The notes beneath the pieces are model-generated. The model made no database searches. It had not been told where the DNA came from and saw only the letters and a program-made list of their open reading frames with translations. This document shows positions 1 through 50,388 of a DNA stretch of 64,000 nucleotides, one piece after another (position 1 is the first letter of the stretch; each line of letters opens with the position of its first letter). The stretch comes from Candidatus Omnitrophota bacterium (GTDB lineage Bacteria > Omnitrophota > Gorgyraeia > Gygaellales > Profunditerraquicolaceae), in NCBI GenBank assembly GCA_028716965.1, contig JAQUOV010000003.1:140756-204755 (forward strand), given 5' to 3'. Position numbers and translations under genes: made by a program.

Positions 1-3000
1 TCTTAATTACCCTTCCTTCATTTGCCGCATCATAACTCTCATGGACTGAACTCTTTGCGTTCTTATATTCTAAACTCTCAAAAACTTTCTCCGCGGCCTT
101 ATAATTCAAGTTTTTCATATGTTTCAATGCTTCCGGAACTGATACTAAATCCTTGTTTTCTACAACTTCAAACCTGGTATCGCCATTCTTATCCTGGCTT
201 TCAAAACGGGAAATCTTAAGGAATGCGCCGTTATTATAGGCTATTACAAAACGTATTACATTATGGCTGTCCCTAATGAATATTTCCGTAACAGTGTTGC
301 CGTCCTTAAGCGCTGTGACCTTGCGCGTAGCCAAATCATCCGACCTGTAAGATGTTGTAACCGACCTTTCATTGTTCTTTATAACCTTATTAATACGCTG
401 TATCCGGTAGGAATCTTTATTGCCGCTGGCCTTAAACGTGGCAACCTCTCTTTTTCCGGAATAAGCTGCTACCGGAACCTCCTTGCCTAATGTTTTATCA
501 AACCTGTAAATAGTAGTTTCTTTTGTCTTAGGAGAGAAGGTTTTAACCATATAGCCTTCTACGTCAAAGAATGCCTCAAAACGTTCTCCTGTTATAGCAT
601 TGGCAAAAATCAATACTTTGTAGACTGCTTTACCGGCTCCTTCATTCCCGGTAAGGTTCATAACCGCGTATTTCTCGCTGATTATGGCATTCATGAAATC
701 AATATAAGGATAAGGCGAGCCGTTGCGTAAGTTACTAATACCCCTGGTTAAATTCTTTAAGGCGCGCTGCAGGTTTTCTTCCTGATGGGCAAGGCGCTCG
801 ATCTCCGACTGCTCTTCAGGATTAAATACGAACTTATAAGTATTGTTCTCGGCTTGAGAATAAACTACCCAATCAAATTTATAAGGCGCCTGATAAATAA
901 GCCACAGCAGTTTGGCGTTAAGCTCTGAAGTGTCGGGGTTCTGCAACATGTACTGCCTAAGTTCCTTGACATTCCTGTCTTCATCATACCTTCCTAATAT
1001 TCTTATTGCCTGCTCCCAGGTAACTTTTTCACCGGGTTTTGTAAACCTGTAGAATTTCAAATAACCGTTTATTGCATCCAGGCTGTCTTTTGCGTCTAAC
1101 AATTGGTTCCTAAGCTGCTTAAATTTGGCCAATTGGTTAACGTTAGCGGCAATCTCAAAACCCTTGGCTGTTTCGCCTAACGAATAGAATTTACCTTCTT
1201 CATAGGGTATCTTCAGGAACCCGCCGCGTTTAATTACATCTTTCATAAGCTTAGCATTATTAAATGCCTGGATTAAATTCCTTGCTACCTCAAAAGCCTC
1301 ATCCACGCCGGTCTCAATCACTACATAATGCACATTCCCTTCTTTATCGGTAAATTTAAACTGCCCCTGCTCAATTGCGGCCTTTGCCTTTACCGCAAGC
1401 TTCCAGGCATTATCGCGTTCCTGCCTGCCAAAACCTATCTCTATATGCAGCTTGCCGGTTTTCTTATCAATCCACCAGGCCCTTACTATAGTCTTATCAA
1501 TATTCTGGTAACTCCTGATGCTATGTTCATAATTGATCGCCGAAGCCTCAAGCCCTCTTACGGCAAGATATATACCCGGGATAAACATTCTGTTGCCGTT
1601 TGCGTCTTTATAATAGAATTTCTCTGTGCGGGTAGGATTGCCTGTCCCCAAGAATCCCGTGAAGAACTTAAGCGGGTTCACCACTATTTCATTCCATAGC
1701 CAGTTCAACCCTCCCCAAGGGTCTTTAGCAAGCTTTAAATGTTTCGGCAGGCTCAATCCTTCTGGCATAGCCTCCACATTATAACCTCTGTCCGTGGATA
1801 CTATTTTACCTTTGGCGTCTTGAGGCACCTTTGGCCCGGCAACCGTTGCCTTTGCCCAGTCAGCTATGTCAAATTTCCCTCTGCCATTGCCTTTTCCGGC
1901 TGCCTTAGCGGTAAGCCAATGAGGGAATAGATAACCAAACAGGTCATGAACGGGTTTAGGTATAAAGCTCAAATCAACGTCTGTACCGCCCCAGCCGCTT
2001 AATATTGAATAATACTTAATGGAGTTAAGCAAAATCTGGATATTAATCGGATTAATGCCTTCAGTAAGGAAAGTCCTGATCGCCAGATCCATTACTGCGC
2101 CGCGGGTGGCAGTCTTCTGGTTCTCAAGATTTGCCTCTACATTCTTTTTGGACTTCCTATACAGATATTCGGCGGTTGAAAGTGTATGGGGCCAGACCAG
2201 ATTACCCCTTGTATCCCTGATTTCCAAGACTGGAGCTGCTGGGTCAATAGAGAATCTGTTGTAATTCAACCACTCCGCCTTCTTTTCTATAAGGTTTAAT
2301 ACCCTGAATTTAAAGTTCTTGCTGTCTGCATAAAATTCATCTTCATCTTTATATACGCGTGAGACCTTCCACCTGCTGGTCCTGGTATCAAAAGCCAGGG
2401 CGTAAAATTTATTGGCAATGAAATTACTGTTTATGGCCTCTTCTGATCCGAACCTTACAGCCAAGTTCTCCTCTACAGAGGAGATATTAAGCATAATCTT
2501 TTGTTTGTTAAATTTAACTGCCCTGGCCCTGGCGTAATCAAGTTTCATTACCGTATCATCATCGCCTTTGGTTTCTACTCTTACAGGTACCAGGTATGCG
2601 CTTTCGCCGGCAGTAAGAGGAGCAAGGATCATATATCCTTCCGGAAGCAAAGAGGTCTTCTTGCCTGCGCCCTTAAGAACCTGCCCAATGAAGTGCAGGA
2701 TATTCTTATATTTAACCCAGAAGCTCTCTTTTAATTCTAAGAATCCTGCGCCATAAACAACAAAGGTATCCTGTTTCTCCAGCAGCCTGGAGAGCTTGCC
2801 GTTTATATAATCATTGTAAACTTCCTGGTAATTGGTGTAGACCTTAAGCGCCTCAAATACTCCTCTTTCATTCAGGCGGATAATGCTGGCAATACTGCCT
2901 ACAATTTTCAATTCCATGACAAAAGCCCTGTTCTGGGCAATCTCCATCCCCCAGTCTTTCTGTACTTGTGCGCTCTTTTCTAAAGCAAAAACCTTTAAAC

Positions 3001-6000
3001 AATCTTTTTCCACCTGCTTAACATTGCTGTAGTAAAGCGCCCTTTTCCCTTCAGGAATTATATACTGATCAAAGGTACCAAAGGCCCTGCCTGTAATCTG
3101 GAATTTATTGAGCAACTGCGCAGGTTTTACACTAACATCCACATATACTACCCTGTCTAATGCCTGCAAATGCCTGATATCTATGATTACTTTTCCTTTT
3201 CCATCAACAAAGACTGGCTGCCAATCAATATCACCCTGGAGATGCGGGCCGAATAAATCCTTTAACCTGCCGTTATAATATCCATCGCTGAATAAACCAT
3301 CATATTGCCTCCAGGGCAGCGTCTTTGAAACTACCATTCCGCCGGAGCGCATCGCTTTGTTATAATCGTTAGGATTACGCCTTAATATGCTGAAAAATCC
3401 TTCTCTCTTGCTTTCAGGCACAATTACCGTAAGCTCTTTGCCTTTTACATTAAACCTATGCAACTCAAACCCGCGTGCCTTCAGGAAATCCTCATTAAGC
3501 TGCTCTATCCTGGACAAATATACTTTTGCTGAAGCAGGGTCATATACGAATACGCGGCCTTCAGGAGCAGACAGGTTCCATTTACCGGAAGTAACTAACT
3601 GCTCCAATACTTCATTGGAAACCACTCCTACGTCCGGATACTTGCCTAATCTTAGGTAAACACGCTGGTTATCCTTATCCAATAAAACCCCTAATTCTGG
3701 AAGGCCAACCATCTTGCTTAATCTCTTCCCTTTCTTAACATCACGTTCTATATTCTCTTTATGTTCATGGATTAGAGGTAATTGCTCTCGGGCCTTTTGG
3801 TAGGTTCTACTTAACTGGCCGGCCGATGGCCTTGTTTTCTTAACTGACGATTGGATTTGTTTGATAGGTTTAGCGGCTTTAGTTTTAGGAGGAGCACGGC
3901 TCTGTACAGGTTGGATCTCTTTCTTTGGCGTAACTATCTTTTCAGGCTGCACAGGAGCAGGTTCTGCTTTGCTGGCAACCACCGTTTTCTTTTTTGAAGG
4001 CCCTGCTTTTGGCTCCGGCTGAACAGGATTCTTTCCCTTCTGTTCCACAGGCTCCGCTTTAGCCGGGGCTGGATTATCAGCTTCTTCTTGTGGCTGTGCT
4101 ATCACGCCTAAAGCACCCCATGTTTCTTTACCCACAATACCATCAACCTTCTTAAGCTCTTTTGCTTTCTGGAACAACATTACAACTGCCTTTGTTCTCC
4201 ATCCGAACATTTTGTCAATAAACTTTCCTGTCTTCAGCCTGGTTACGATATCTTCTAAGCGGGCCCCTATTGCCTTATCAGACTCGCCTGGAAACATCTT
4301 CTTAAGAATCTTACTGAGATCCTGTTTCTGTGTATCGGTAAACTCTCCGGAATTAAAGAAAACTCTCAATTCCCCCTGTACATATACAATTTCTTTATTA
4401 GCCATGCCTATTTTTAACAACATATGCGCTGCTGATTCTTTATACCCTATGACTTTAACAGGAAGTGCTGGTTTTGCCTGAGATAGAGGCTTTGTTTTTA
4501 CGGCTTCCGTCGGCTTTACTGCGGGAGCTTCTGGCTTAGTTGTTTCTCCGGGTTTTACCACAGGCGCTTCGGGGGCCGGCTGTACTGCAGGGGCTTTTAC
4601 CGCAGGCGCTTCGGGTTGAGTTGGAGCGGCTGGTTTCTGCAATGCCTTTTCTGCAGCGGCAATTTCTTCCCTGAGCGGCTTGGTTATCTCTGTAATTTGC
4701 TCTAAGCTAAATCCCTTTTGCTGGCCCAATGCTATCAGCTTAGTTAACTTCGTTTTTATCTGGGGTAATGTGTTTGAATCCTTCTTAAGTTCTGCGATAT
4801 ACATACCGGCCTGCTTTAGCAATTCCTGCTTTTCCATTTCTAAAGTAACTGCCGGTTCTCTTGGTTGTACCGCAGACTCAGGCTTTGACGCTTCCGGCTT
4901 TACTGCCTTAGCTTCCTGCCCCAAAGTAACTTCTCCAGTAATAATATTCAACATATTACCACCTGTCTTCTGCAAAGAACCCTCGAACACAGGATAAAAT
5001 GCAAGCATATTTTCTGTATCGACGGCTATCACCAGCCCGATTCCGTTATAATAAGCATCAACGGTACCTGCGGTTGCCCTGAACAATTTAGCTTTTTCTT
5101 TATTTTTAAGAGTTTTCACATAATATGTCTGTTCATCGCCGAATCCCCAATACGATGTGACACAGTCATAATTTTTATCTTTCGCATACGCTAGTAAGAG
5201 GCGGTTTATGGTGGACTGATTAATGGGATGAGCGCCATTTGCTATGATATAACCTTTTGTTTGTTGCAGGTTTTTCTGCCTTGATACCCATGTTTTTTGC
5301 TCAAGGCGCTCTGCCTGCTCCGCGGTAAGGAAAATAGCATCGCCATTTCCTGCGGTATATAATTTATTGCCATTGTCGTAAACAAAAACTAAATTATTAT
5401 AGAAATTATCTAAGCGAATTTTCCCACCGTATTGAATTGTATACGACGTAATTTGCTTTGCATTATATTTAACATCAACGTAAACGTAGCCCTTCCTGCC
5501 TTTCTTAGTATTTTCGGGCATCCCCGTAAAGACTACATTATAAAGTCCATCTTTTACTTCTTTAAACGACTTAACTTCTGAACCTTGCTTTATAATTTGA
5601 CTGATGTTTACTGTGTTGGTATCAAGGTCTATGGTCTTTTCCTGCGCAACGCCAGCTTCTACCTTAGGCGCGACAGGCGCTTCCGGGGCCGGCTGTACTG
5701 CAGGAGCTTTTACCGCAGGCGCTTCGGGTTGAGTTGGAGCGGCTGGTTTCTGCAATGCCTTTTCTGCAGCGGCAATTTCTTCCCTGAGCGGCTTGGTTAT
5801 CTCTGTAATTTGCTCTAAGCTAAATCCCTTTTGCTGGCCCAATCTTATTAATTCGGATAAACGAGTTTTCTTCTCAGTTAATTCGCCTGGATTATTTTTA
5901 AGTTCCTTAGTGTATGCTTCGACTGTTTTTATAAATTCTTGTTTTGTTGTTTCTGCAGTTACTGCCGGTTGCGGCTGAGCTACTTTAGCCGGCTCTTCAC

Positions 6001-9000
6001 TTAATAATCTTTCTATATCCGCTTTGTTATCCGGATAAACAGCCAAACCATGCTTAGCCATTATGTACTGCTTTACCTGTTTTAATAGTTCCGGGTTGAT
6101 GGTTTCATTCTTAGCCTTAAACTGAGCAGTAAGTTTATTAACGGCATCGTTTAATTCCTGCTTGACAATCAGGAGATTGCCTGGTTCGGCAGCATGGGCA
6201 ACCGATGGGCTGAATATCGCTGTTTTTATGGCGGCGTGATTATGTTCGTAGAATGTTGCGGGTTTAACTAAATAGGGCTCAAATAACGAACTGACTTGAA
6301 GGAACAAACCGAAGAATACACTGGCTATCTTAGGAGGAGATTTGTTAAAATGGTTGGTGCTGTGTCCGGGTTTCTCTATTAATTCCATTGAAGATATTTT
6401 TAACATCGCGTTAAGCGAACCGCCTAATTTCACATGCCAAGCCTTAGGCCCGATCTGGAAGGCTATGCGCCTGAATTTACCGGAAGTTGGCACTGTAACT
6501 ACAATATTATCCTTACCCATAACATCGGGTACCACTACTAAATTGGCCCCGGGGAAACTATTCTCATTTGCATTTTCACCGAGGAATTGCACCCCTATCT
6601 TCATATTCTCAGGCCCGGAAAGGTTATATTTAATGCGCAGCTTTTGTCCTTGTACCAAATTAATCGCCGGCTCAAAATCATACCAAACTGCTCTTGCTTG
6701 CCATTGCGGGCCGGTATATTCCCCATATTGGCCTTTTGTAAGGATATTTTCTCCCGTTACGACGCTCTCTTGTTTTGTTATTGGCTGTTTAGGCGTATGG
6801 ACAACAGGAGGCATTACTTCTTGAGGCGCTGGTACCTGAGGCTGAACCTTTGCTGGCTCTGCGTTGATTCCCTTTGTAACAGCTTTGTATAAGTCAGGAT
6901 ACTCTGCCCGCATAGAGTTCTTCATCTGCCACATCCAGCCTTTTGGATCCCAGCACTGCGCCCAGGAATAATTATTAACTATCTCCTTGGCATGCTCTAA
7001 TGCTTTCGCTTTATTACCTATATGGTAATAAGCAACCATCAACTGCCAGTGTGCCGTGCCTAAATGATATAATGCCCAATATTTCCCGAATATAGGAGTA
7101 AGCTCTGCTTCAGTGCTTGCCTGCGGGTACCTGCCTTCTTTAGCCGCTTCTTTCTGCTGTTTTTTGGCAATCTCTACCCAATCAGGATGCTGCTTAAACA
7201 TACCCTCAAGGATTTGTATTACCTCATTCCACTGCCCACCCTGATATCTATACCAGGCCTTGATCACATAATCCTCTGCCTCGGTCATAATCTTCTTGGG
7301 ATCTAATGCCTTTTCTATCTTATCTTTTTCCGTAAGCGGCTTGGCAAGTTGTCCAGCTTCAACTTTAAGCCTATAGGATAGAGGCCCAAAGCCGGCAATC
7401 ATCGGGTCTGCTGACAACTGTGTCATTATCCTATATGATGTGCCGATGCTGCTTAGATTAAATTCGCCATTCTCTGCTTTCCATGGGGTATTCCAGCCAT
7501 ATCCGACTGGCCGGTCATGCCCGTCTCCGCTTCTTGCTTTTATCTGCTTCTTTTCCGCAACAGGTAGACTCTTAAGCACCCCTTCTGATAATGCCTCTTG
7601 CAAACCTTTAACTCTATTTTGGCCTATGGCATAAGGATAAGCAAGGCCGCCTTGAGTCTTAATTTGCGCTTTATCAATCTCTTTCAATATATTGCCATGC
7701 TCGTTCTTATAATAAAGCGACTTTTCCAGGTCCATCTCCTGGAAGCTATCTACAAACAAGCGTAAAGCGGCATTGGCAACCTCATTAGACCATTCAGGGC
7801 TTCCTAACGGCTCCCGGCCTTTCCCTATAGTTGCTTTCTTATCCGGTTTAGTATGTACATAGTTTGTTAACTGCTTGCGGTCAGAATGAGTAACATAATC
7901 AAATAATGTCACACTTACGTTTCCGCCTTCCGGATGGCTGAATTCAATATCCACCTTGTAATTATCAACAATAAACTGGTAAGTTTTATCTGCAGCTCCC
8001 GGCTCAAAAGCATCCATCTTTTTCTTGCCGAATACCGAAATTCCCCAGGCATTTGCATCTAACGGATACCACGGGACTATTCCGGCTTCAACCGAGACCC
8101 CTCTGTCACCGTCAACAAAAGCAACCTCTGTCGTGCCCCATCTTAAAGCATGCGCTGATTTATCGTATACCTTTCCAAGCCATCCGAACACGAGCTCGGC
8201 AGCTAACCTGTACTTTTCTTCTTTAGTTACCTGGTAAAGCATATTGAATAAAGCGTAACTGTCTACGTTATGCTCGGCGCAATACAGTTCATAAAAACTT
8301 GGGGCTTTGGGATCAAAGCCTGCTCTTTGCTCAACAGGATTTCTCCCCTTTGGCCCCATACGCACGCCGCCATAATTAAAATCGCCCTTGTTCTTGTTCT
8401 GTAAAGAAATAATCCAATCTGCCCTTCCTTTAGCAAACTCCAGGAAATGCTCTTTACCGGTGTTTAAATATGCCTGAATTCCGGTTATGCCCCAGAAAGC
8501 GTTAGGGCCGACATGCACTACCCACTCAATGCCTTTGCCTGCCCCCCTTGCATCAGAGGCATCCACAATATTAATGATTCCACCGTATTTCCAGATACCT
8601 GTATGGCTGGTAAAATATTTAAAAGACCTGTTAACCAGCTCAAACTTCTTCAGCAGAATATTTGCCATGGTCTTCATCGCATCGTCATATACGACATCCC
8701 AACCTTTGAGCCGCGGGTCTCCGACATGGCTGTCAACCAGGCTTGTTTCCGTACGGGTATGCGCGTCTAACCACTGGCTGAGTTCCTTTATCGTCTTTTC
8801 ATCGGGTGCCGGCAATTCTTTCCTCAGAAAATCTCTCTGGTTATCAAGCAGGTCTTTTGCGTCAGCAGTAGAGATAGAAAAAAGATTGCTTATGCCGCGG
8901 GCGATACTATCTACAAAATTTGGCGTCTGTTTTAAAGAAATATCCTTAACGGTTGGATTATTCCTGTTTTTCATTAGGCGAAAAACAGAAATTACCTTTT

Positions 9001-12000
9001 TCACATAGTTGTCGGATTTTCTATTAGAGTAACTTATTGCTGCTTCTCTCCCCAGGCGCTTAGCGCGGTTAGGCCCGATATTATAGGCAGCAACCGCATA
9101 TTCAACATCATTGTCAAATCTTTTTAACATCTCTTTTAAATATTTCACTCCGCCTCTAATATTCTGAGCCGGATCCATACTATTTTTAACACCCATATCA
9201 TTGGCAGTGCCGGGCATAAGCTGTGTAAGACCTTCGGCGCCTTTTGGTGAAACTGCTTTCGGCTCGAAGTTTGACTCGCAGCGTATAACCGCCTGCACCA
9301 ATGGCAAAGGCACATTATGACACTTAGCCTCCCTTGCCATAATCTTATAGAATTTTCCTTTATGGAAATACTTAGGTTTACTGGGTATAATTTCATTTGT
9401 ATTATTTAATCCGATGGAAGGCGAAATCTTCTTTGTAGCTATAACTTTTTGGGTAGGACTTATTTTATCTAAAGCCTTTTGCGTCTCCTTCATCCAATGC
9501 CCCTTTATCATAAAACGTGCGCCTTCGGGCAAATTAGTATCTTTTAAAGCCTCATTAAATTTACCAAGGGCTTCCTGGAACATGTTTTTCCTAAAAGAAA
9601 CTACCCCGGCATTATAATGATCCTTACCTATAAAGCCTTTTGTTTGTGCTTTTGTCTCTGCGCCAGAGGCATGTTTTACAAAAGAAAGGCTATTACTGAT
9701 AAAATCAGCAACTTTTCCGGCTATATTGTTAATCTGTTTTACAAATGAAGGCGGGCCCTTGTTATGTTCAGGCGCTAATGCCAGTTGTTTGGCCATAGTA
9801 GATTGCTGGATTCCAATACCGCCTGTTAACCCGGGGTCAGAATAAGCATATTGCTGAGGAAAATCCCCTATAACTATCTGGTTACCGCCAAATCCATAGA
9901 TGCCGGCGCTATCTGCCGAGAAAGGAATTCCTGCGCCATGTGCCGGTGTAATAAACATTAAAACTCCTGCTATCGCAACCAACCCTAAGGCCGCAAACCC
10001 TAAATTAAGCATTCTCACATTAGGTAAGGGCAATGGCGGAACCATCTGGTCAAGTTTTCTTGACGCCCCCTGGTATGCTTGCATAGCCTCAACATACATA
10101 GCGTGTTCCTGTACATAGCTATCATAAATAGCCTCTCCGCGGTTATAGCGTTCTTTAATATCAAGCACTTTCTTGCCTGATATAATGAGTTTTATATAGG
10201 CCAAGGCCTTATCTTGAACTTCATTTGAATCCTTACCCAATGCTTCGATATCCAAAGTTAAGTTCTCAAGCAGTTCTTCTGCATCTACTTGTTTACCTTG
10301 TAATTCATTGTTCGCAATCCGGGCATAATAATCAACAACTATGTCTGCCAACATCCTCTGTTTTTCTTGTTCAACTGGGGATTTCTTGTTATTGGCTAAA
10401 TACGCCTTTAACCACTTGTAGTAAGTTTCAAATATATTATAGCCCATCCATTCCTCTGAAGAGATAGGCTCTAACTCTTCAATCTTATTTTCTAATTGAC
10501 TAACCCTTTGCCTTAAATAGGATATTTTGCGTTTTAATAAAGATAGCTCTTTAGTTAAAACTTGCATGAGCTCCTCTTTACTCTGGCAACCGTCTACCTC
10601 CATGCTTAACTCTCCTGCCTTTACTTCTCCGCAAACCCAATCTCGTAGATATCCAAACTTCTCCTCCTCTAAAGACTTGTTCACAATATCTAAAATACTC
10701 TTTAAAGACCTTGCTTCTTTATACAGAGAAACAATCCTCTCTTTTATTCTGGCAATCCTTGCCCTTAAAACAGACTCTTGGGCTAAATAGTTCTCTATCT
10801 TCTCCACTAACCCCTTAAAATTACGCTTAAAAGCCGACAACTCTCTCCTACCTTCTTTATTTATAACTAATTTTACAGGTTTTTGTATCCTGGCTTCCTT
10901 GAATTCTTTATTTGACTTAATCAAAAGGCGATTCAAGGTTATATGAGCGACGATATATAATCCGATAACTGCAGGTATAAGGCCAAACAGAATAATACTG
11001 CCTGTGATCGTTGCAATAATCGCTATTCTCTTTACCGTATCCATGGTTGAAGAATAAGTATTCACCATCGCTCCGGTATCAAGCGGGCTGGAGCAGCCTG
11101 CCAAATGATTTTTATCCTGCAACCTTGGCTCTGAAGATTCACCCTGCTGCACAGAATTCTCTATACGGTTATCAGCATGCGGATTGATTTTGTGCGCTCG
11201 CCCCATCACAATCAAGCCTGCCATCATATTAATAAACATTGTTACAAATGGTATGCCTAATACGGCTCCTGCCAACCCCACACAAAATACAATCATTGAG
11301 AATATCACCTTGGCTTCCTTGGATCCGGCATCAGCTACTTTACTTGCCATAGCGCCTAGAACAAAAGCCACCAATCCTACGAATACATGCGAAAGAGGCA
11401 CGCCCAGAATTATTGTCACAGCAATCGCTAATACGAAAGTATTCACCACCGCGCCGGTATCAATGGCGCTGGAAACAGAAGAGCCACGATTATTTATTGC
11501 TGGATTGCTTTTAGACAATAACAAATTGATGATCGGGGCCATATTTACGGCAAGCTTCATCGCCATCGGGTCCTGCCCACATACTACAGATAATAAATAC
11601 ACTATCGGTATTAAACTCTTGCCTCCCTGGGTAAACCAACCAAGCCCGGTAGGCACTCTCTCTGCAGGGCTGCCATCAGGATAATAGGCATAAGCCATGC
11701 TATTGTCATACTGGTTCCTATAGCTAAGCAGCTTCTCCAATAGATTATCGGCCTGCGTTTTATATAAAGGATTCTTCCTTGCTAAAGCATATTTTGCTGC
11801 TACCATATGCGTAAAGAATTCCGTAGAGATAAACTCCTTACGGTCGGCTAAGAAGTCATACCCGATGATCTCATCGCTCGCATTCCTTAAAGCAATCCTT
11901 GCATCGGCCATTTGTATAATCTCTTCAGCGGCATTCTCCTCAAACCTGTCCATTCCTTTAACTCCAAATGCCGAGATTGCCCATGCCTGCACATCAGTGG

Positions 12001-15000
12001 GTATACTTGTATCTATACCGTAACCTTCAACATAACCGGAGTAGAAAGCGTGTTGGTTATTATCATAAAGCTTCTTTAAGAATGCTTCGATTTTGTTCGC
12101 GGATTCAAGATATTTAGCATCCCTGGTCAGAGCATGCAGCCAGCTAAATAATAGGTAAGCGTCAATATTGTGTTCAGCGCAATAAATCTGCCAATATCCT
12201 AATGCATTTTCATCCCAATTGATCCTCTGATCTTTGGGATTGCCTGGTTCTCCATGCGGCCCCATTGGGACTGCGCCATAGGCAAAATGGTTTGTATCAT
12301 TATTCTGTAAAGAAATGGCCCAATCAGCTTTTTGGCGAGCTAAGGCTAAATTCTGCTGATCTCTTCTCTTGCTATAAAGCCGTAAAGCCGCAATACCCAA
12401 ATGCAGATTCGGGCCTGTATGCACAAACCATTCTACGCCGCTGGCATCCAAAGCTCTTGCTGCATTAATCTGTCCCCCTAGCCTGGATGGGATTTTTGCT
12501 GATGAGTCAAGGAGGTTTTGAGCGCCTATTGCATCCCCTGCTGCCAACAAGCCCTGCACGGCAATCCCCTGGTCATAAGTTATTGCCCACCCGTCAACAA
12601 CCGGATCCCCCAGGCTGCTGGCTATCAAACCTGTGGGGTATATCTGGCTTTTTGCCCAATTAAACAGCTTTTGTTTTGCATCCTCTTTGTTCAAGCTGGC
12701 AAATACCTTGGCTACTTTTGAATTGCTCAAAGCTAAAGCCATGCCGCCAAAGAATACCCTTCTTAAAAATTCCCTTCTATCTATAGGCGAAGAGGTGCGT
12801 GTATTGGAGATACCGGAGGAGCCACGATGAGAAACCTCTAAATATAAACGGTAAAGTTTAGGAGTGGCTAAAATAATTCCTGCCACCTTAAATTCCACTA
12901 TACGATAAACACGTTCTTTCTCTATACGCTCAGCATATCCTTTTGTTCCAAAGTGGCCCACTAAACCCTGGATCTTATTTTCAGCAGCCGCAGTTATACG
13001 TTCCTCGCTGACTCCAGGCTTAATCCCCAACAATTCAAACAAGTCTGTCTTAAGAAATTTCTTGAAATCTTTAAGTTTGATCTTTTGGAAAGCAGGAAGC
13101 TTACTGTTTATTCCGCGCCAAAGTAAATCAATTTTCTCGCCAGAGGTAAGAGTCTTTTGTTTAGCCTCTACACAAATAGTATTTATAAGTTCTTGGACCT
13201 TCTGGTTATCAATACGTTCTGCCCCACGCCCAACATAAGCCGGCCCTAAGTTTAAATCCTCAATAAAGTCTATTACTTCTAACTTATCAATATCAGTAAT
13301 TCTTTGTAATTCCTTGGTCAAATCAGTAACAAAATCATCATAATTCTTATATTCTCTAGCGATCACCTCAAAATATTCCGCTATAATGGAATATATATTC
13401 ATGACTTCCCATTTGGACCTTGAGCTAATGGGGCTGCTGGAGGAAACCACCGGCTCCTGCCATAATTCAAAGTCAAAACCGTAAAAAGCTTCTATGAGCA
13501 GCTTATTGTCTTCGCGCATCACGGTAAGGATATCTTTTTGCTTGCCGCTGATATACTTTCTTACCTGCCAGACATCTTCTCCTCCCTGATAAACACCCTC
13601 TCCGCTAACCTCAAAAGGATTACCCGAAATTAACATTACTTCATTGTTTTCTTTATCTCCCTTTATCACGAACCTGAACTGTCCATCAGGCAATTCCACA
13701 TCTACGATGTTCCCGCCTTGAATATATTTAATAAATTCTAAACCTGCATCAGGAACAGATAGGCCATAATCGCCTAAACGAATTTCATTTCTACGGACCG
13801 CCCAGTCACCAACCTGCTTGTTTTTCCAGTCCTGAAGATGCGTTTTACGCTCTTCGCTGCGCGCGCCGCTCCAGGCCAAAAGTACCTTCGTGCCGTTTAC
13901 ATCCTTATAAAATCTGTATATTATTATACGGTTACCCGGAATAACAACCTGCCTAAACGTGGACAGCTTCTTATCGCTATAATCTGAACCGGCTGTTTCA
14001 GGAGCGTCAACAATATTCTGAACGGCTCTCTTTAAATTATTATCTCTTCTTAAATCATTAACCGGGAATTGAGGAAGGGCATATACAGTCAAGTTGTTCA
14101 CAGGGCTTGAGCTTGTCTCTAATACCACAACCGCTCCAATTGGAGAACCTGCCCTTCTAACATCCAAACTATTTTTCTCTAAGATTAATAAAGAATTGCC
14201 GTTAACAGTATTCGTTTCTATATTGAAGCCGAGTTTCGCGATTGATTTTGGCTCCCTTTGACTTAAGCAATTCTCCGGCCAGAATATTTTGCTGACTAAG
14301 ACTCCACCATCCTTAAGAGCCCCATTGCTCATCTGTCTTAGCGCCCCCAGCAAAGTCGCCTTTTCATCTATTTCAGTAAATACACTCTTTCCTGTAGCAG
14401 TAATGTGCCCTAATTCAAATGCGCCGATAGAAATAATGGCGTCAAACCTTACGGGGTAAACCTTGAGGAAATCAAGCATATCGGCTTTAAATATAGGATA
14501 ACCGTCTTCGGCTAAGCGGGAATCTACGCCATAAACTATTGCCCCCAGTTTACGCAATGCATCCATCGAATCTGTTTTTACCCCAGGGCCTATTTCAAGT
14601 ATCCAGGCGCCTTCAAACTTCTTGCCTTGTTTTTCAAATATCCTTTTTAGCGCCTCTACTATAGGGTTGGCACAAGCAGCTTCCACTGTACCGCTATCAA
14701 GAGGACTACCGGAAGATGGTTTTTCTAACAGTTTTAGTAAAGCCCTACATTCATCCTTGAGTTTCTTGGAAGTATCCTCATTGCTAATTAACGCCTGAAG
14801 GTCAGGCACTATTTCTTCTAATGTTGTTTTGAATCTTAGGTATTTAGGTGAATTTTTACGTTGATGATCCTCAAGCTTTTTTCTGAGTTTCTGTAAAAGG
14901 TTAGATTTGTTTCCCACAAGAAAAGAGCTAAATAGTATATCGTGAAGCATTTTATCTTGAAACGTATACCCCATCTCGATAAATTCAACTATCGTTTTAA

Positions 15001-18000
15001 TGATTTGAGCTATAAACTCTTGCCTGCGCTTTTCCGCATCCTTCTCTTGGGCCTTCATCTTTCTGTCAGGGTTTATCCGTGCCTTTTTATCTTGAACAGG
15101 ACTGGAGACCTTACCTGCTTTCCTGCCTTCAGCGCTGATCTCTACTATATCAACCGGATTCTCAATAACCGCAGCTACGCCCCTGCCTCTTCCTGCTTGA
15201 GATTTCTCAGAATACCAGTTAAACCTCCGATTATTTTGCCACGCTACTCCAGATACAGGCTTTATCCGCTGGATGGGGCTGGAAGGCCTATGGCCATGAT
15301 AATTTATTGCCCTGTCAGTATTGTCAAAACTCCCTTTTGTCCCACTATTCTTATTTTGACTGTAAATACCAAGCTTATACGCCAATATGCCTCCAACAGC
15401 ATAGGCTAAAATATCGTATATATCAGTATTCACGCCATATATCTCAATGATTGTCAATATGGTAAACCCGGCAAGAGTCGCCCAGCGAGTAGCTTTTTTG
15501 TTCATAAATATTAAGTCAGCGGTGCCGTTAAAATCACACGGAAGGGCTCTTAAAATATCAGACACCCTTCCTGTGCCGGAAATCGTATTTGCAAATCCCT
15601 TCAATAATCTCAAGAAGAACAGGGTCATAAAAACAAGCAAGGGGACAGATAAGAAATCATTAATATGGTTGGTCAATACCCAGCCCCATGAGGAATGCTT
15701 TAAAGGTACGTAGAAAATCTTTGCGATCAGGAATGTTACGGCGGTAAATATCGAAGTGAAAGCTGCCGGTTTAAGATACCTGGAAACATTGCTAATGGAT
15801 TTATTCTTCAATCCTTCGTGAAGTTTAACCAGATAAAAAACAGACATTGAGAAGATTGCCGCAAACTCCAGTCCAAGCAAACCGGTCTTTGCTCCAAATA
15901 TGCCGCCTATAAGGGTCGTCCAGCCGGCGAAGTTGGCCAGGTCTAATCTCTTCCTCTCGGGGAAACCATGGCTTTGGTCAAATTTATCCAATAAGAAGTA
16001 CATCAACGGGTATAATACCCACGCCCACATAGCAATACTCAATGGCATAATGAATAACATCAATGTACGCATTATGCCATTAACCACCAAGCTTTGTGCC
16101 AAAGGCTCAACGTTGGCCGCCCAATAGGTAAATCCAAAACCTAATAATACTCCGGACAATAGGAAGAGGCGGATAGAGGTTTTCTGTAGCAGCTTTGCTC
16201 CTCCCAAAACCATAGCAATTGTAAACCTGCTTAAGAAAGACCTCTCTTTTGTTAAAGCCGAGGAGGCCTCAGATGAAACATTATTGAGGCCTCTGGCTTG
16301 TTCCGTTAATCCTGTAGACGGGAATGTTATTGCTGCGTGCAGCAGCAATGCAGCCAATGACAGCGCTGGTATTAGCGCCAGAGAGCTCTTCCCAGGAATC
16401 AGCGCGGCCATTGCGAGTATAGACATGGCCGTTAGCTTCATTAATAAGGAAGAGCCTGATATGCCCATCGCCATATTTTGCGGCTGCAAAAACCGTGTTG
16501 TCCTTCTTAAACTCGACGATGTGGTCAAACACCAATTCGTTAAATCTGATAGGGGACATGATGCACCTCCTTTTTCTTGTTGTATCGGGGGCAACAGGGG
16601 GATCATCGCCTGGAGGGGGCGCCCTGCGTCCCCCGATGACAACAAAACCACTATCTCACACCTGCCACGGTAGATGAGATTAGTGGTTGGTTTAAAATTT
16701 AAAATGTTTTCCGGAATGATTACGATATTTCTTGCCTGGGATTGTTTCTCTAAGGAAGGGACAAGAATACTTACGCCATCTTCATTAGGCGCATTAGCCT
16801 GCATAATGTTGCGCAGGATCAATAAGCTAAAGCTTATGATGAAACCTAAGGATATTAACCTTATCAGCTCATTACCATAAACATTGGCAACTAAACCCGT
16901 GGCAATAGATAAGAAGCCAGTGTTAATAAACTGATTTATTATGAACCCATAATCATTGCTTGTATGCCGCTCTGTCTGATCTCCTCTAGTCTTCTTAAAA
17001 GGTACTGAGTCTCTAAAGCCTTTAATTCCTCTATGAATTCCAGTATCTTCAATGTTTTGCTCTCTGTTAGGTTTACCATTTTCTCCTCCATTTTTAATTA
17101 CTTCTTCGTTCAAGGTTGATCCGAACCCGTTGTTGAAACTAATAGGAGGAGCCTGTGAATTAACTTCGCCGATAATTCTTTCTTCCGGATGGACTTTAAT
17201 TTGCTCACGCGCCCTGGAATAAATATGATATTTGTCAAGGAATCTTATTAACGCGTTTAAGAATGAAGCGGCCGGCTTGTTAACAGGAGAACTGGTGGCT
17301 ATTACAATTCCTACCGGCATGCTGCTTGCTGATGCAGGCACTTCACTAATTGGAGAGGAAGGAGCTGTTTGGGGATTTACTTGGTCCCTGATGTCTTCCG
17401 GAACCTGGTTAATGTATTCCGGAATCGCATGGAGAACATCTTTGAATATATTAATCGCTCCTTCTTTATCACCTTTATTATATTTAATCATGCCAATCCC
17501 AAACTTATCTTCATTAAACTGAGTAAGCTTGCTATTCCTCTCTTCGAACATTAAGCTTTCATATACTTCCCATACCTTAATGGCCTTATTATCTTTCCCC
17601 TGTTTAACATAAACTTTATAAAGGATAAGGTATGCCTCAGCGTAATCAGAACTTAGATTAGTGGCTTCTCTTACGGCCTTGACTGCCTCATCATATTCCC
17701 CTGATTCTAAGTGTTTTTTGGCTATCACAACATAATCCTCTGCCGTAAGTTGTTTCTCCGCCCCTGCTTCAGCCTCAACTGGCGCCTGCGGCACAACAGG
17801 CTGCTCTTCTAATTTTACAATAAAGTCATTCTGTCCTGCAATGGCAGATAAAGGATAAAAAACTTCATTGCCATTCACATTCAGAACTACTGAAAGGACA
17901 ACCTCGCTATCATTGTACACGCAATCTTCCACATCCAACACCACGCCTGTTACTGTTTCCTTACCAAGTATAAATCTTACTTCCTTCCCTCTAAGCTGCG

Positions 18001-21000
18001 TAAACTCTAAGTAGAATACCCTTTCCTTAATTGCCCCTCTTGCTGCCTTGGGAGCGCATTCCATAGCATCCTCAAAATTAACGCTAGCCTCTTCGTATTC
18101 ACCAAGAGCCCACAAAGCTTCTCCGTTTTCACGGAATATATGATAGGTATCCTTCTTAAAAAAGTTCAATTTCCTTATATACCTACTAAGCCTTATCGCT
18201 GCATAGAATGCTCCGGTTGCTTCCTTATAATTGCCATTACGCAGATATGCTGTTCCTAAGCGATATAAAGCTAACCTGCTATTGGGGTTCAATACAGTTA
18301 TCTTGCTATAAAGGGCTATGGCCTGCTCAACTTTTGTCTTCCTCTCCTCGTCGTTATCCGCCTTCTGCTCTTCTTCTTCGGTTTTACCCGCTATCCTCCA
18401 AGCTGCACCTTCCAAAGCCTTCCTTACTTTATCGAAAGCTCTTCTATCTAAATAACCGCCTAAGGAGAACGCGTTCAAAAATGTATATGGCCTGAGTTCT
18501 TTCCTTAGCGCTTCTATATCTGCTTCCGCTGCTCTCAACTCATCTAATGTCTTCGCCTCTTTTAAGCTGTTGATAACCCCATAGGCTTTTTGCCTGAAAG
18601 TTAGCGGTTTAGGCACCTCTGGAGATTTTTCCTCTGCCGCTTCTTCTGCAGGAGCCTTCAAATCGCCTTTATCCTCCTCTGTTTCTGCCTTTGTTTTCCT
18701 TGCTTTAATAATCCTGATTACTCCAAGAATACCTAACCCAATAACCGCCCCTGTAATTACAATAAGGCTGATTGTGACGGCTGTCTCGGAGAATCCGGTT
18801 AACTGGCTTATATAACGAATATTCTTAGTGGCCCAGGATACCTTCTGACCATCAGGAGATTTTACCTGTTCAGATTGCTTGATTTCCTTTTTGCTATCGG
18901 TTGGTTTCTTGGGTTGCTCTGCTTCTTTCTTCTCTATTTTAGGTACGGGTTTTTGCTCAACCGGCTTAGTTTTTTCTTCTGGCGCAGTCAGTTTTTGCTT
19001 ACCTGCATAAATCTTCTGTTGAGGATATATGAGGTCGGGATCCTTTATATTATTATCACTGGCCAGCTTTCCTACGCCTTCGGGATATAGGGCTTTGTAG
19101 TCGTATATGCCTAATGCCTTGGCATCAACTGCAATGCCGCTAAGCGTATTCTCGGCAGGCCTATCCGACCTCCAGTTCTTCGTGGCCACTACATAGTGCC
19201 CCTCTTCATTATGGAATTTATGCCCATATTTCGGCCCGACAAGGGAATCTTTATTTAACGGCCCTTGCTTTGCTGCTTCTTTGGCTGAATCTTTAGCAGG
19301 AAACTTTGCTTTTATTTCTTTAGGTGCGGGTAACTCTTTGGGTTGCTGCTTAAAGGCTGATTTATTGCTATCTGCATTCTTATCAGTTGCCGGATTTGGT
19401 TTAGTCTTATTACCGGCAGGCATGCCGACAGCTTTATATTTCTTGCCATCTGCTTTAAAATCCCAATGCAGCGCTTCAGGAGAAGGACGGCTATCACGAG
19501 CTTCTTTGCTTATCTTATCTAATTTACCTGTGGTATCTTGTTTAAAACTGGATTCTCCTACGTTCATCCCCCCATCTACCGCTGCTATTGCGGGGTTTAC
19601 GCCATAAGCAATAGCCGCTACTGAAACCCCTATTAATGCCGTAAGCACGGGATGGCGCCTAAACCAGCCAAATATACCTGAACCTTCACTTATTTCAATC
19701 TCTGAATTTACTCTATCTAAATATAACTCAGGGAATGCTTTTTCGTGGGCGTCTTCAAAACCTGTGGCTTCAACCGCTATTTCTTTTCCAGAAGGATCCT
19801 CAAGAATCCAAGTTTCGGTAGCTTTTGAATACTCTATGCTGCTTTCAGGCGGACCACGGCGATAATGTGCTTCCGTGTTTTGAATACCAAAATTAATCTC
19901 TCTACCCGCATCAATGGATACTGCTCTATCGGAATTCAATCCTGTGTTATTATATATAACTCCCAGAGGGCTTGACCCTCCGCAATTGCCGCCGTCTCCG
20001 GCGCCTGTTGCCCCGGTTGCGCCGCCGCCCTGTGAACCGCCGCCGGTTGAACCTGCGCCTGCTCCACCTTGCGCGCCACCGGTTGATCCGCCGCCTTGGG
20101 CCCCACCGCCAAGCTGACCAACCTCCATTCCCTCCATCTCTTCTTCACTTAGCTCAACTTCTGTATCAAAATACTTGTCCTTAATCACTTTTTCTGTAAC
20201 TATAGTTACTCTCCCCGATGCGTCAGTTATCTCTGAAATATGAACCTTAAGTAATCTCCTTTCACCATTATCGTTATCAGAATAGCCATACACATAATCT
20301 CCCTCAATTCTTTCAAATCTAAAGAGATGCCAAATCCCTCCTTTAGTTTTATATACGATAAATACCTTGTTAGAGATCAACTCGGCACGGTCCCTTAATG
20401 TGTCCGCGCTAATCCTGAATGCAGTCAAAATGACCCCTGTTACCTCTTTGACCACTTTTATAAAGTCGCTTAACCTCACCAGATAAGAACCGCTAAACTT
20501 TTTAAGCCATATTCTGAAATGATCGTTTACTTTTTCTTTTTGACCCTCATCTTCTAAAATAGTACCCACTGCACAGTTACCTATAGCCTTAAATTCACGA
20601 ACCAATTGCTTCATTGCTTCAATGCGATACGCCTCTCTCTCGGTATAGCTAATTGAATCCCAGTCCTCTCCGGCATCCCGGGACAACTGCCTACCTCTTT
20701 CTTCAATCATCTCCTTTGTAATATAATCGCCGCCTCTGGTAACAAACCATTGTAAGTGTTCAACTTTCCTGGCTTCTTGTCCTAACCTTGTCTTTAGTTC
20801 TCCTACTTCTCCTTTTAGTTCTCCTACTTCTCCTTTTAGTTCTCCTACTTCTCCTTTTAGTTCTCCTACTTCTCCTTTTAGTTCTCCTACTTCTCCTTTT
20901 AGTTCTCCTAATGTTTCACCTTGTTCTTCTATGGCTTCACCTTGCTCTTTTATGGCTTCTTTTATTTCTCCTATTGCCTGGCGTTGCGCCTCTACCTCTT

Positions 21001-24000
21001 CAACCAATTTTGTCATTGCTTCCTTTACGCCTTCTAACTCACCCCTTCTAATACTATCTATTAAGCTTTCTACTAATTTTCTCCTTTCACTCTCTTCTTC
21101 CTTTATTTCTTTAAAGGCGCTCTTCAGCTCCGACTGCACTTTTAAAAACAAGGTCAAAGCATCCAGCCCTCTCTTAATCTTATCTTCTATAATATCGTCA
21201 CTCATTGCCTCTAAGAATCCGTTAATCATATTATCTGCGGCAAATTCTTTCAGGAAATTCTCACTAAGAGCAATATTGTCTCTGCTTGTATCTAATTCTC
21301 TAAGGCCTCTCGTTGTTATCCCCAAAAGTACAAAAGCCCTCGCGGCAAAACCATCGGCATGTATCCAGGCATCATCTTCCAAGAATTCGCTTTCTTTCAA
21401 TAATCTATATGCTCCTTTATGATATTCCTTCAGCTCAAAGTCAGACTTTTCCCTCTTACGGTATAATTGCTGAGCTACTAAGCGCCACAAATTATTCCAT
21501 ATTCTTGGTAAATCATCTGCAGAAATTGGTGAGGATGAATTGACGGGGATCCCAGACACAAAACGTCCGCCATCTGTTTTTTCAAGCGGTTTTAAGGCAA
21601 CACTCATAGAACCACTGGTTTCTGTAGTTTCTTGACCAACAGCAGTCTCAATAGCCCTTATGGTCGCTACTACATCACCTAAATCTCTTCCGGCTTCTTC
21701 AAGCCTTGTACCTATATTACTGGACGCACCTGCTGCACCCTGCCCTTCTTCTCCATTTCTGGAGGTTGCACTCTGGGCACCTGCATTTAATACATTTCTT
21801 GATTCTATTACTACTAATGAACCTAATTTGCCTCTCGTATTTAGAGCATCAAACTCTGAGAGAGAGCTCGATGTGTAAGCAGTAGGCGGGCCGTGGGCAG
21901 AAATTGGACCAGCCACTATAGGAATTTGTGACGTTATATCACCTAATTTGATCTCTCTTGAACCAAGTACTGGCATAATTGCCAAATTTCCATGTATAAC
22001 TGCCTGTTGTATTCCTAAATTGCCAACTATAGAGCCAACAATAATCGGGTTAACCCCGCTTATAGGCGTTACAGGCGGAGCCATAGGCCCAGGCACGGGC
22101 AGGCTTTCGGTATCATTAACCGGTGAGCTAGACTGGACAGGCCCTATATTCTTCTCCCATAGGCCTTTCAGGAATTTACCAAATTCACTCTTCTCAATTT
22201 GTCTTAGGGAAACATTATCACTCCAAATGATCTTTGCCGTTGCCGGCCAATCATTTCCCTGCGACTTCAAGTATCTAAGCTGATCAGTATACGCTTCCTT
22301 TTCCAAAGGATCCGCAAAATAGCCTTGTAGATTATCCGGAGAAAGGGTTGAAACAATGAACCTGCCCTCTTTCCATTGTTTATAATGCCTTAAAACATGC
22401 ACAATAAACGAGCGATTAGAAGCATTATCCATGCGAAGCATATCTTCAGTGAACAATATGGCATAGCCTGTGCCTCCGAAGATCTTTTTCAGTATCTTCG
22501 CGGTCCAATCAGTAAGATATGCGCTGTCTAATCCGTTCTTCGCCGCCTCTTTCCCTATTATATTGGTATTATGGCTTTGTTTAGGAGGGACAGCGAATGA
22601 CTCAACAAGCTCAAAATCGCCCTCTCCCTTTCCAAGTAAATAAGCCCCTAAACCTTGCATCAACTCCAGCGGGAGCACTGCGATATTTACTTTATTTAAT
22701 TCTGAAACGGTAATACCCAGGTTGGTTTCAATGAATTTAACGAGAGCGGGATCATTACGCAGCTTTTCCTGTAAATTTACTTCTTTTATTTGAGTAAGCA
22801 GTTCATTAAGCGCCTTTTTCAAAGCAGCGCTTTCCGAAGAAGAAACTCCTGCTAAAATAGTATTCGGGAATAAAGCAATCCCCAGTGCAAAGAGGCCTAT
22901 TGTCTTAAGGAACTCTCTGCGAGGTAATTTGCGTTTGAGCGCGTCTATTATCTTATTCAGCGCCAGAACGCTTTGCGGAGGGCTTCTTTCGGCCTGCTCT
23001 CTGAGCATAGGCGAACTTACCGGCTTTGCCTCCTGCGGCTTAATCTTTTCCGGCTGCCTCATAGATTTAGGCAATTCAGTTTTTCCACCAACCCCATTAC
23101 CATACCCTGCGTCCTTACCTATATAAGCGCCACCCTGACCTTGGCCAATGCCTCCTTTGCCACTAATTAAATTAGGATTCAAATACAGCCTCTGGAGGTC
23201 CCTAATCTCACCCATAGTTGAAACTACCACATCGGTTCGGCCGGAATCTTTAATAATCTTGGCCACAGTATCCAAATATCCCTCTGTCGTTGCGACAATC
23301 ATCGGAGATATCTTTTCAACACCTACTTCACCGCGTATATCGCCCTTAATATATCTTTCTTGCTTAGGAATACTGCCTTCTCCTAAAATGACAATAGGTA
23401 TTTGTGCACGCTTCTCAATCTTAGCAAGCTCAACCCTGCCTTCTTCGGTTAACTGCAATTGATTAAATCTCTCTTTTAACTGCGTAAGATTCTTCAGGCG
23501 GCCCTCAATTGCTCTTATCGTTTGAGCCAATATTGATGTTTCTGTATAATCTTCTGCTTTAAGCCTCTTCAAAGCATCTTGCATTTTATGCATTGTTCCA
23601 TCTATATTAGAAGGAGTTATAGCATTCCCAACAGATTTATCCGCATAGTTGATGGCATTGCCGACGTATCCTTCATTCTCGCCTGTCAGGTAATTTAACC
23701 CAAAGCGGTTTAATCCTATTGAAGAAATAAGATCTTGGTTAAGCCCTGTTTCGCCTCCATTTTCGCCACTCAAAGGAATAATGCCTAATTCCGCAAGTGC
23801 CTTTCCAGGTAATACTCCAACATTTAAGATACTCTCCAGGCCTGCTCCATTAGTCCCATGGGCAACATAAGTTACGTTTTTATCTTCAGCCATAGAAGCT
23901 GCTGTTCTTTGAAGATCCAACTTCTGAATATTAGACGAGCTTACCTTTTTTATTTCTGTGCCCGGGATTAATGCCTTAATCGCATTCGCCACCACTTCAA

Positions 24001-42519: not shown

Positions 42520-42554
42520 TTATTTCTCTCCTATACGCATAACCCTAAGAACTT

Positions 42555-44682: not shown

Positions 44683-44691
44683 TTAACCTCC

Positions 44692-46074: not shown

Positions 46075-46076
46075 AA

Positions 46077-46349
46077 CTACTCTCCTCTTAAAACCTTATC
46101 TTCCGTCAGCTCCTCCGGTTTATGAACCGGCCACTGCAGGGTATAAGTATCAGAGGATGTCCCCGCGATTACCCTGCCGGCATTATAACTCTGCTGGCGC
46201 TGCACAATCTGCTTATTTGCCCAGAACCATATCTGCATTATCGCAGCAAACAAGAGCACTATCCCGGCAAAAACAAATGCTATTTCAATCATGCTTTGCG
46301 CAATTTCATCGCGCTTTAACTTTTTTAACCCTAAAACGGAGTAACCCAT
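46077..46349 (-). CDS. TadE-like pseudopilin
   Basis: RDEIAQSMIEIAFVFAGIVLLF matches the TadE_N consensus. Confidence 0.6.
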   Translation of the reverse strand: MGYSVLGLKKLKRDEIAQSMIEIAFVFAGIVLLFAAIMQIWFWANKQIVQRQQSYNAGRVIAGTSSDTYTLQWPVHKPEELTEDKVLRGE

Positions 46350-47540: not shown

Positions 47541-47541
47541 C

Positions 47542-47886: not shown

Positions 47887-47896
47887 TTTCGCCCCT

Positions 47897-48061: not shown

Positions 48062-48078
48062 TCCCTTACTCCCCTTCT

Positions 48079-48228: not shown

Positions 48229-48230
48229 CT

Positions 48231-49139: not shown

Positions 49140-49151
49140 CCAGATTCTCCT

Positions 49152-50003: not shown

Positions 50004-50033
50004 TTGCACAACTCCATATTTGTACTTATCGCA

Positions 50034-50360: not shown

Positions 50361-50388
50361 AAAACTCACCTCCTTAATCATTATATTT

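Follow-up and report, generated by a model that had tools for sequence, protein, structure and literature searches.

The giant proteins encoded by Omnitrophota have been reported to carry an SLT domain, a GH76-like fold, an N-terminal C39 domain and tetratricopeptide repeats (TPR), and a role in cell-wall degradation has been hypothesised for them (West-Roberts et al. 2023, bioRxiv 10.1101/2023.11.21.568195). The published giant genes are preceded by a cluster of Rotamase_2, RcpC, GspD, GspE and GspF genes (bioRxiv 10.1101/2023.11.21.568195). The DNA analysed here, hereafter called the window, is a stretch of 64,000 nucleotides from a Candidatus Omnitrophota bacterium (assembly GCA_028716965.1, contig JAQUOV010000003.1, forward-strand positions 140,756 to 204,755), and the region of main interest within it (positions 4100-12660) is an internal part of such a Candidatus Omnitrophota 'giant gene', which follows a conserved cluster resembling Tad and type II secretion systems (T2SS). 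The criteria for Omnitrophota giants of West-Roberts et al. (2023) include a protein of at least 30,000 amino acids and small PilZ genes downstream, both of which would fall beyond the window in the present case. This region encodes an SLT domain and a PG_binding_1 domain, which on the evidence of significant hidden Markov model (HMM) matches are both directed at peptidoglycan, together with two paralogous glycosidase-like barrels that bracket the SLT domain. In the interpretation preferred below, the SLT domain would act primarily on the sacculus of the producing cell itself.

The giant gene and all of its features described below lie on the minus strand. The open reading frame (ORF) (2..40798) begins with an ATG at position 40798, comprises at least 13,599 codons and has a 3' end that runs past the start of the window; it belongs to a frame that is devoid of stops from 40801 to 2 (13,600 codons) and that encloses positions 4100-12660. 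Residues are numbered from the first codon of this stop-free frame (40801), and the length of the protein is a lower bound (more than 13,600 residues), its C-terminus lying beyond the window. A chance ORF or an assembly artefact was ruled out, because a stop-free run of 13,600 codons at 43% GC is beyond chance and because an orthologous fragment sharing 65% identity exists. All the motifs quoted in the original prediction, which placed peptidoglycan-related motifs inside one giant protein, were indeed found in this frame. Pfam scans revealed few domains in the giant protein (C39, TPRs, SLT and PG_binding_1), and a Kyte-Doolittle scan revealed about 14 hydrophobic segments; blocks of TPRs are also present. 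The C39-peptidase-like domain is N-terminal (40001..40396; Pfam Peptidase_C39, E=1.2e-8, match at aa 183-267), is preceded by a signal-peptide-like N-terminus and has, by direct reading, both the Cys motif (Cys136 in 'CG') and the His motif ('DHYVLV'). The phylum, the upstream cluster, the N-terminal signal with C39 domain, the TPRs, the many transmembrane segments and the scarcity of annotated domains are thus shared with the 'Archaeovorin-type' giants (West-Roberts et al. 2023) and with the C39-only architecture cluster (bioRxiv 10.64898/2026.06.07.730766). Unlike in those giants, no HEAT, GT5/GT1, SecA, GGDEF or glycolytic-enzyme domain was found by Pfam among the 13,600 visible residues. 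For the segment comprising the SLT domain and the second barrel, no close relatives were retrieved from GTDB genomes or JGI metagenomes, and an exact 41-mer from the start of the window was absent from the metagenomes searched, so that the 3' end of the gene was not recovered. When the whole giant protein was compared by tblastn with 47 loci, the matches were limited to the barrels and to one N-terminal C39 region (locus L039), and no SLT domain was found within 10 kb of the other Tad clusters among these loci.

The SLT domain, a GH23 family-1 lytic transglycosylase domain, is encoded at 9044..9331 (aa 10491-10586) and matches Pfam PF01464 with E=1.9e-26 and 92.4 bits (gathering cut-off 21.3) over profile positions 6-107 of 117. 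This agrees with the GH23/SLT domain originally predicted at 9040..9340, and the three motifs on which that prediction relied are present: CESNF at aa 10508 (window position 9280), GLTQLMP at aa 10524 and AYNIGP at aa 10572. In family-1 lytic transglycosylases, motif II is GLMQ-like, motif III is AYNxG and motif IV is a C-terminal YV.kV; all three can be read directly in the SLT domain, as GLTQL, AYNIG and NYVKKV, respectively. On realignment the catalytic Glu proved to be present as well: 'IRCES' aligns with 'IRQES' of LtgA (5mpq) and with 'YTES' of 9b45 in a PDB sequence search, so that the catalytic residue is kept as E10509 (codon 9275-9277), aligned with the Glu of LtgA. Judging from these sequence features, the domain is an intact lytic-transglycosylase domain. 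Its PDB sequence matches include the SLT domain of a phage tape-measure protein (9b45, the best, E=2e-12), Neisseria LtgA, Escherichia coli Slt70 and MltF. NCBIfam ranks BB0259, a transglycosylase of flagellar assembly in Borrelia, first and MltF and Slt next, all of these matches being at the domain level only and far under the full-length cut-offs.

Compared with family-1 enzymes such as Slt70, LtgA and MltF, and with specialised ones such as Borrelia BB0259, the domain shares the ES catalytic, GL(T)Q and AYNxG motifs; with Slt70 and LtgA it also shares a TPR-like helical region before the SLT domain, which is a weak match here. It differs from them in its setting, since it is part of a giant multi-pass membrane protein, whereas theirs is a periplasmic enzyme or lipoprotein of 20-70 kDa. 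With phage tape-measure and tail proteins (9b45 gp41) the giant protein has in common an SLT domain carried by a very long, mostly helical, wall-crossing protein; however, there is no other similarity, and neither a phage context nor phage genes are present in the window.

The second peptidoglycan-directed part is a PG_binding_1 domain (PF01471) encoded at 4109..4219 (aa 12195-12231), where a PG_binding_1 motif had been predicted (4106..4147). The match scores 29.9 bits when a chunk of 4,600 aa is scanned and 35.9 bits (E=8.4e-9) when a fragment of 111 aa is scanned, both above the cut-off of 23. Only profile positions 22-57 of 57 are aligned, the first helix being divergent or absent, and the motif VDGIVGKETW is found at aa 12219 (window position 4147). 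Supporting matches were obtained with the N-terminal region of SleB in NCBIfam (E=2.3e-7) and with a 'peptidoglycan-binding/hydrolysing protein' in the PDB (5tv7, E=0.006).

The LysM domain suggested near 19300 fared less well. The corresponding motif, DPDLIYPQQKIYAG, lies some 250 nt away from that position, at 19001-19042, with DPDLIYP at aa 7254 (window position 19042), within a LysM-like half motif at 19010..19078 (aa 7242-7264). Pfam LysM (PF01476) reaches E=0.0017 and 18.7 bits there, under its cut-off of 20.9, and covers profile positions 19-40 of 43, that is, about half of the profile; no LysM match was obtained in a Pfam scan of a 4,700-aa chunk. A phmmer search of the PDB with this region gave SafA at E=0.43, a homologue search found none, and a single-sequence AlphaFold2 (AF2) prediction, run without a homologue alignment, had a predicted local distance difference test (pLDDT) score of 42.6. 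As the Pfam fragment scan, NCBIfam, the PDB phmmer search, the homologue search and AF2 were all sub-threshold or uninformative, a LysM domain was not counted. Furthermore, Pfam and PDB sequence searches found no amidase, M23, NlpC/P60 or lysozyme domain in the 3,400 residues on either side (aa 8401-9349 and 11138-13600).

The two barrels are encoded on either side of the SLT domain. Copy 1 occupies 11546..12754 (aa 9350-9752) and copy 2 occupies 7391..8866 (aa 10646-11137), as delimited by HMM envelopes, copy 2 having two insertions relative to copy 1. The original prediction of two paralogous alpha/alpha barrels is supported both for the paralogy (BLASTP, 33% identity, E=6e-47) and for the fold, which a moderate-confidence model predicts to be an (alpha/alpha)6 six-hairpin glycosidase-like fold; the predicted start of the second copy was about 250 nt short. 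No Pfam or NCBIfam model matches the barrels. In structural comparison they come closest to GH15-like, GH76, GH88 and GH8 enzymes, to sugar epimerases and to terpene cyclases, with no more than 8-15% identity in each case. In comparison with the six-hairpin glycosidases in particular (GH76 alpha-1,6-mannanases, GH15 glucoamylase, dextran dextrinase, GH8 and GH88), which fall in the same range of identity, the barrels have their own set of conserved residues, namely D9410, N9465 (an invariant Asn), E9543, D9603, D9649 and E9661. Among 58 full-length homologues, D9603 and E9661 are conserved in 100%, E9543 in 98%, and D9410 and D9649 in 91%. All residues of the set are retained in copy 1, in copy 2 and in a partial orthologue of the latter (P0157, 65% identical), which comes from a Candidatus Omnitrophota metagenome-assembled genome (MAG). 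In the model, most of these residues are placed at the N-terminal end of every other helix or immediately ahead of it, and the conserved carboxylates would be compatible with the active-site funnel of six-hairpin enzymes, the position of the pocket being taken from secondary structure only.

The sole sequence link of the barrels to a characterised enzyme is marginal: the barrel profile matches the GH76 alpha-1,6-mannanase Aman6 (4bok) in the PDB with E=2e-4 and 23.6 bits over about 60 residues. Here 'SN' and an insertion stand opposite the 'NDD' of Aman6, at a place where the barrel family has the invariant N9465, and Pfam GH76 does not match the barrels. Membership in GH76 was therefore rejected because the adjacent catalytic Asp-Asp pair is not conserved, although the alignment is marginal and this is not a strong negative. 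The fold of the barrels is probably the same as the 'GH76-like' fold reported in silico by West-Roberts et al. Barrel 2 is followed by a conserved extension (6266..7390, aa 11138 to about 11512) with sub-threshold matches to TPR_6 and TPR_14; this extension accompanies the barrel in several homologues, as BLAST alignments of four of them (P0011, P0019, P0024 and P0152) reach aa 11306-11512.

The barrel is widespread outside giant proteins. A word-indexed search retrieved six stand-alone homologues, each about 430 aa long, whose N-terminus is hydrophobic and resembles a signal peptide. An exhaustive HMMER search with their alignment raised the number of cluster representatives to 1,193 at E<=1e-3 and to 512 at E<=1e-10; the family thus comprises at least 1,193 clusters after clustering at 50% identity. 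Stand-alone homologues bear signal peptides or a lipobox. The commonest form, of about 650 aa, consists of a cytoplasmic PilZ domain, a single transmembrane segment (at about aa 130-150), a coiled coil and the barrel, and is found in dozens of representatives (P0022-P0076); at one locus (L047, 8001-9977) such a gene is located near three small PilZ genes and a GAF-HD gene. Other members include one fusion to a GT2 glycosyltransferase, one fusion to CBM30/CBM11 modules, one gene within a nucleotide-sugar/GT2 cluster and one adjoining a GH77 gene. Because the homologues have signal peptides, a lipobox or the order PilZ-transmembrane segment-barrel, the barrel would be an extracytoplasmic domain, and, because of the PilZ, GT2 and CBM fusions and of the nucleotide-sugar and GH77 neighbourhoods, a role in polysaccharide metabolism is suggested. 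These contexts point to an extracytoplasmic enzyme acting on polysaccharides, often those of the cell itself, rather than to a murein hydrolase. In this respect the family follows the same logic of polysaccharide processing controlled by cyclic di-GMP (c-di-GMP) as the exopolysaccharide-system enzymes BcsZ, PslG, PelA and AlgL and the PilZ-coupled proteins BcsA and Alg44, a likeness of context alone.

A wider view of the barrels can be put forward tentatively, and we hold it to be somewhat less than an even bet: they would form a large, undescribed glycosidase-like family with its own invariant carboxylates, the form with PilZ and a transmembrane segment would be a direct c-di-GMP switch on an extracytoplasmic glycan-cleaving enzyme, and the two copies bracketing the SLT domain of the giant protein would make up with it a unit cleaving murein as well as another polymer. 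A literature search found no paper on the barrel family, which is weak evidence of absence.

In the direction from N- to C-terminus, the region is composed of barrel 1, three hydrophobic stretches, a K/R-rich loop, a signal-anchor-like segment, the SLT domain, barrel 2 with its helical extension, two 111-aa repeats set in Pro/Ala-rich linkers and the PG_binding_1 domain. The three hydrophobic stretches (10928..11419, aa 9795-9958), identified by the Kyte-Doolittle scan and by direct reading, are putative transmembrane helices. They are followed by the K/R-rich loop (10004..10927, aa 9959-10266; about 308 aa), whose K+R fraction (0.169) is the highest among the large segments and which counts four K/R among the 15 residues next to the preceding hydrophobic stretch; according to the positive-inside rule this loop would be cytoplasmic. 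The last hydrophobic segment (9926..10003, aa 10267-10292) resembles a signal anchor; its end reads AHG|AG, at which cleavage is a matter of speculation. No transmembrane candidate was found by the Kyte-Doolittle scan after aa 10292 up to aa 13600. Since the K/R-rich loop, which leads into this last segment, would be cytoplasmic by the positive-inside rule, the SLT domain, barrel 2 and the PG_binding_1 domain are predicted to lie outside the cytoplasmic membrane. Barrel 1 would be outside too if the three stretches each cross the membrane once, in agreement with the secreted nature of its homologues.

Several peculiarities of this part of the protein were also observed. A duplicated motif, SSx(I/L)DTGA(V/M)VNT(F/Y), is found at 11431-11475 (aa 9776-9790) and 11050-11094 (aa 9903-9917), shortly before the first and the third hydrophobic stretches, and nowhere else in the giant protein. 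The two copies of the 111-aa repeat, A (5672..6001, aa 11601-11710, ending in a Pro/Ala-rich linker) and B (4559..4891, aa 11971-12081), are both located between barrel 2 and PG_binding_1 and share 71% amino-acid identity, with a long identical stretch toward the Pro/Ala-rich C-terminal end; they are underlain by a direct DNA repeat of 233 nt with 88% identity (4560-4792 and 5673-5905). No second PG-binding domain follows repeat A, the segments after the two repeats sharing no similarity. Midway along the giant protein, 'LPRREFLKT' resembles a twin-arginine motif; a hydrophobic stretch comes after it (22844-22921, aa 5961-5986) and six K/R before it, in conflict with a simple topology in which an N-terminal signal peptide would place the first 5,900 aa outside.

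The question is then whose wall would be cut. Flagella and secretion systems have specialised transglycosylases that open the wall locally, and the giant protein could act in a comparable way. The SLT domain would cleave the MurNAc-beta-1,4-GlcNAc bonds (between N-acetylmuramic acid and N-acetylglucosamine) non-hydrolytically, leaving 1,6-anhydroMurNAc ends, and would thereby open a local gap in the sacculus of the producer; the PG-binding domain would hold and anchor the giant chain on murein, so that a megadalton envelope protein could be installed across the wall; the barrels, as an uncharacterised glycosidase-like family, would act on a different, non-murein polysaccharide; and the neighbouring Tad-like machine might profit from the same gap. 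We give a probability of about 0.45 to the SLT domain having the producer's own sacculus as its primary target, in the service of space-making and anchoring. This slight lean over an action on the wall of a prey rests on five observations: (i) the SLT domain is the module nearest to the inner-membrane anchor, from which only about 200 residues separate it in this multi-pass protein, (ii) barrel 1 would be in a loop tethered to the inner membrane at both ends, (iii) the best NCBIfam match of the SLT domain is a flagellar-assembly transglycosylase, (iv) the homologues of the barrel are tied to the c-di-GMP and polysaccharide machinery of the cell through PilZ and GT2 fusions and a nucleotide-sugar/GT2 cluster, and (v) Omnitrophota make normal peptidoglycan, complete peptidoglycan synthesis having been described for them (bioRxiv 10.64898/2026.06.07.730766).

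Other observations weigh against an action on the own sacculus. The topology on which it depends was derived from the Kyte-Doolittle scan and the positive-inside rule. With lengths of 31-36 aa, two of the hydrophobic stretches might be hairpins, in which case barrel 1 would be moved to the cytoplasmic side. The gene also continues past the window at its 3' end, which leaves room for more than one final location of the tail. The best PDB match of the SLT domain is a phage tape-measure protein, that is, a device that breaches the wall of a target cell, and the barrel homologue fused to CBM11/CBM30 points to external glycans. In addition, the published view is one of prey-wall degradation, peptides of giant proteins having reportedly increased in cells attached to larger cells (PMC10066038).

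The phage tape-measure match, the CBM-fused homologue and the published view speak at the same time for the closest competing explanation, which we consider possible, though with slightly less confidence than an action on the own sacculus: the segment after the last transmembrane helix would be displayed at the surface or delivered through the secretin, the PG-binding domain would dock on the murein of a prey or host, the SLT domain would cut it, the barrels would strip other surface glycans, and the partner would be opened for feeding. Published work infers Omnitrophota to be predators or parasites and proposes that their giant proteins degrade surface polymers of the target. The gene adjoins a Tad-like cluster for a secretin and a pilus whose type is related to that of clusters in predatory bacteria, and the more than 3,300 residues past the last transmembrane helix, which have no further anchor, would be enough to reach outside the cell. 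Against this, the SLT domain is proximal to the inner-membrane anchor instead of distal, the loop with barrel 1 would be fixed to the membrane on both sides, the barrel family is otherwise associated with c-di-GMP and polysaccharide systems of the cell itself, and an export signal or delivery route would have to be assumed. Moreover, the only relative known in culture attacks an archaeon lacking murein, against which an SLT domain would thus be useless. The two targets are not mutually exclusive. The 'predatory or epibiotic' role originally proposed agrees with the published view of Omnitrophota giant proteins, whereas an action on the own sacculus would fit the position of the SLT domain at least as well.

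An improbable third explanation, compatible with either target, is that the giant ORF encodes a polyprotein. It would be cut by its own C39 peptidase, by signal peptidase acting on internal segments that resemble signals, or by both, and cleavage after AHG (aa 10289) would set free, in the periplasm or the medium, a soluble SLT-barrel 2-PG_binding_1 enzyme over 3,300 aa in length. In its favour are the Cys and His motifs of the N-terminal C39 domain, the A-x-G|A-type site at the end of the last hydrophobic segment and the internal Tat-like (twin-arginine translocation) 'RREFLK' with its hydrophobic stretch at aa 5961, and processing has also been suggested by West-Roberts et al. (bioRxiv 10.1101/2023.11.21.568195); short motif matches are, however, expected by chance in 13,600 residues. 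Finally, it is very doubtful that the barrels are themselves peptidoglycan hydrolases and the whole stretch one murein-degrading toolkit, for although the copies flank the SLT domain on both sides and combine a glycosidase-type fold with invariant acidic residues, their one sequence link is to a GH76 alpha-mannanase (E=2e-4), and the genes and domains with which they are associated suggest exopolysaccharide or glucan metabolism. Of the 'peptidoglycan toolkit' originally proposed, the SLT and PG_binding_1 domains are thus retained on the basis of their HMM matches, while the barrels, which have no link to peptidoglycan, and the LysM motif, which is under the Pfam threshold, are not.

The Tad/T2SS-like cluster is located upstream of the giant gene (41446..59529, minus strand, annotated with Pfam) and encodes a Rotamase_2 peptidyl-prolyl isomerase, RcpC/CpaB, a secretin-TonB_C fusion, a ParA-like-T2SSE ATPase fusion, two T2SSF proteins and a TadE/G-like protein. 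Its synteny is the same as that published upstream of Omnitrophota giant genes, and the secretin that it encodes indicates the presence of an outer membrane. The ATPase is 90-92% identical to proteins encoded on contigs of groundwater Candidatus Omnitrophota MAGs; 42 of the 44 loci related to it carry the title Omnitrophota or Omnitrophica (most of them Omnitrophota), 'uncultured Planctomycetales' or unclassified MAG. Two fusions in this cluster deserve mention. The secretin (56111-57718, minus strand) carries TonB_C at its C-terminus (E=1.7e-18), an uncommon pairing, and a ParA/CpaE(TadZ)-like P-loop domain is joined to a T2SSE/CpaF-type ATPase in a single protein of 720 aa (53939-56101, minus strand), a fusion kept across Omnitrophota MAGs with 50-92% identity. 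Five ORFs of 298-547 aa (41446-44682, 46331-47227 and 51231-52874, minus strand), located between the Tad genes and the giant gene, have no significant Pfam match, one of them having a coiled-coil-type hit only. On the plus strand, a divergent operon (60287-63930) encodes a FIST sensor, a HisKA/HATPase kinase and a REC-GGDEF response regulator. A c-di-GMP-producing module thus adjoins the locus of the Tad-like cluster and the giant gene, which is of note given the PilZ-coupled barrel family.

With regard to what had been described before, the class of giant proteins has been published, as has the role in wall degradation that is presumed for it. The new elements are the exact order barrel-transmembrane segments-SLT-barrel-PG_binding_1, the duplication of the barrel, the PG_binding_1 domain and the large unannotated, often PilZ-coupled family to which the barrel belongs, this family being the freshest of them. 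Neither PG_binding_1 nor a duplicated barrel flanking the SLT domain is mentioned in the portions of the published main text that were searched.

In summary, few known proteins are as long as the giant proteins of Omnitrophota, whose function is still a matter of guesswork. The SLT domain, the PG-binding domain and the two barrels provide a compact and clear-cut catalytic handle on them that can be cloned and assayed. Such assays would make 'cell-wall degradation by predatory bacteria' a testable proposition and would raise the neglected question of whose wall is degraded. As for the barrel family, and notably its form with a PilZ domain and a transmembrane segment, it is a candidate for a new glycoside-hydrolase-like family that is common enough to merit definition.

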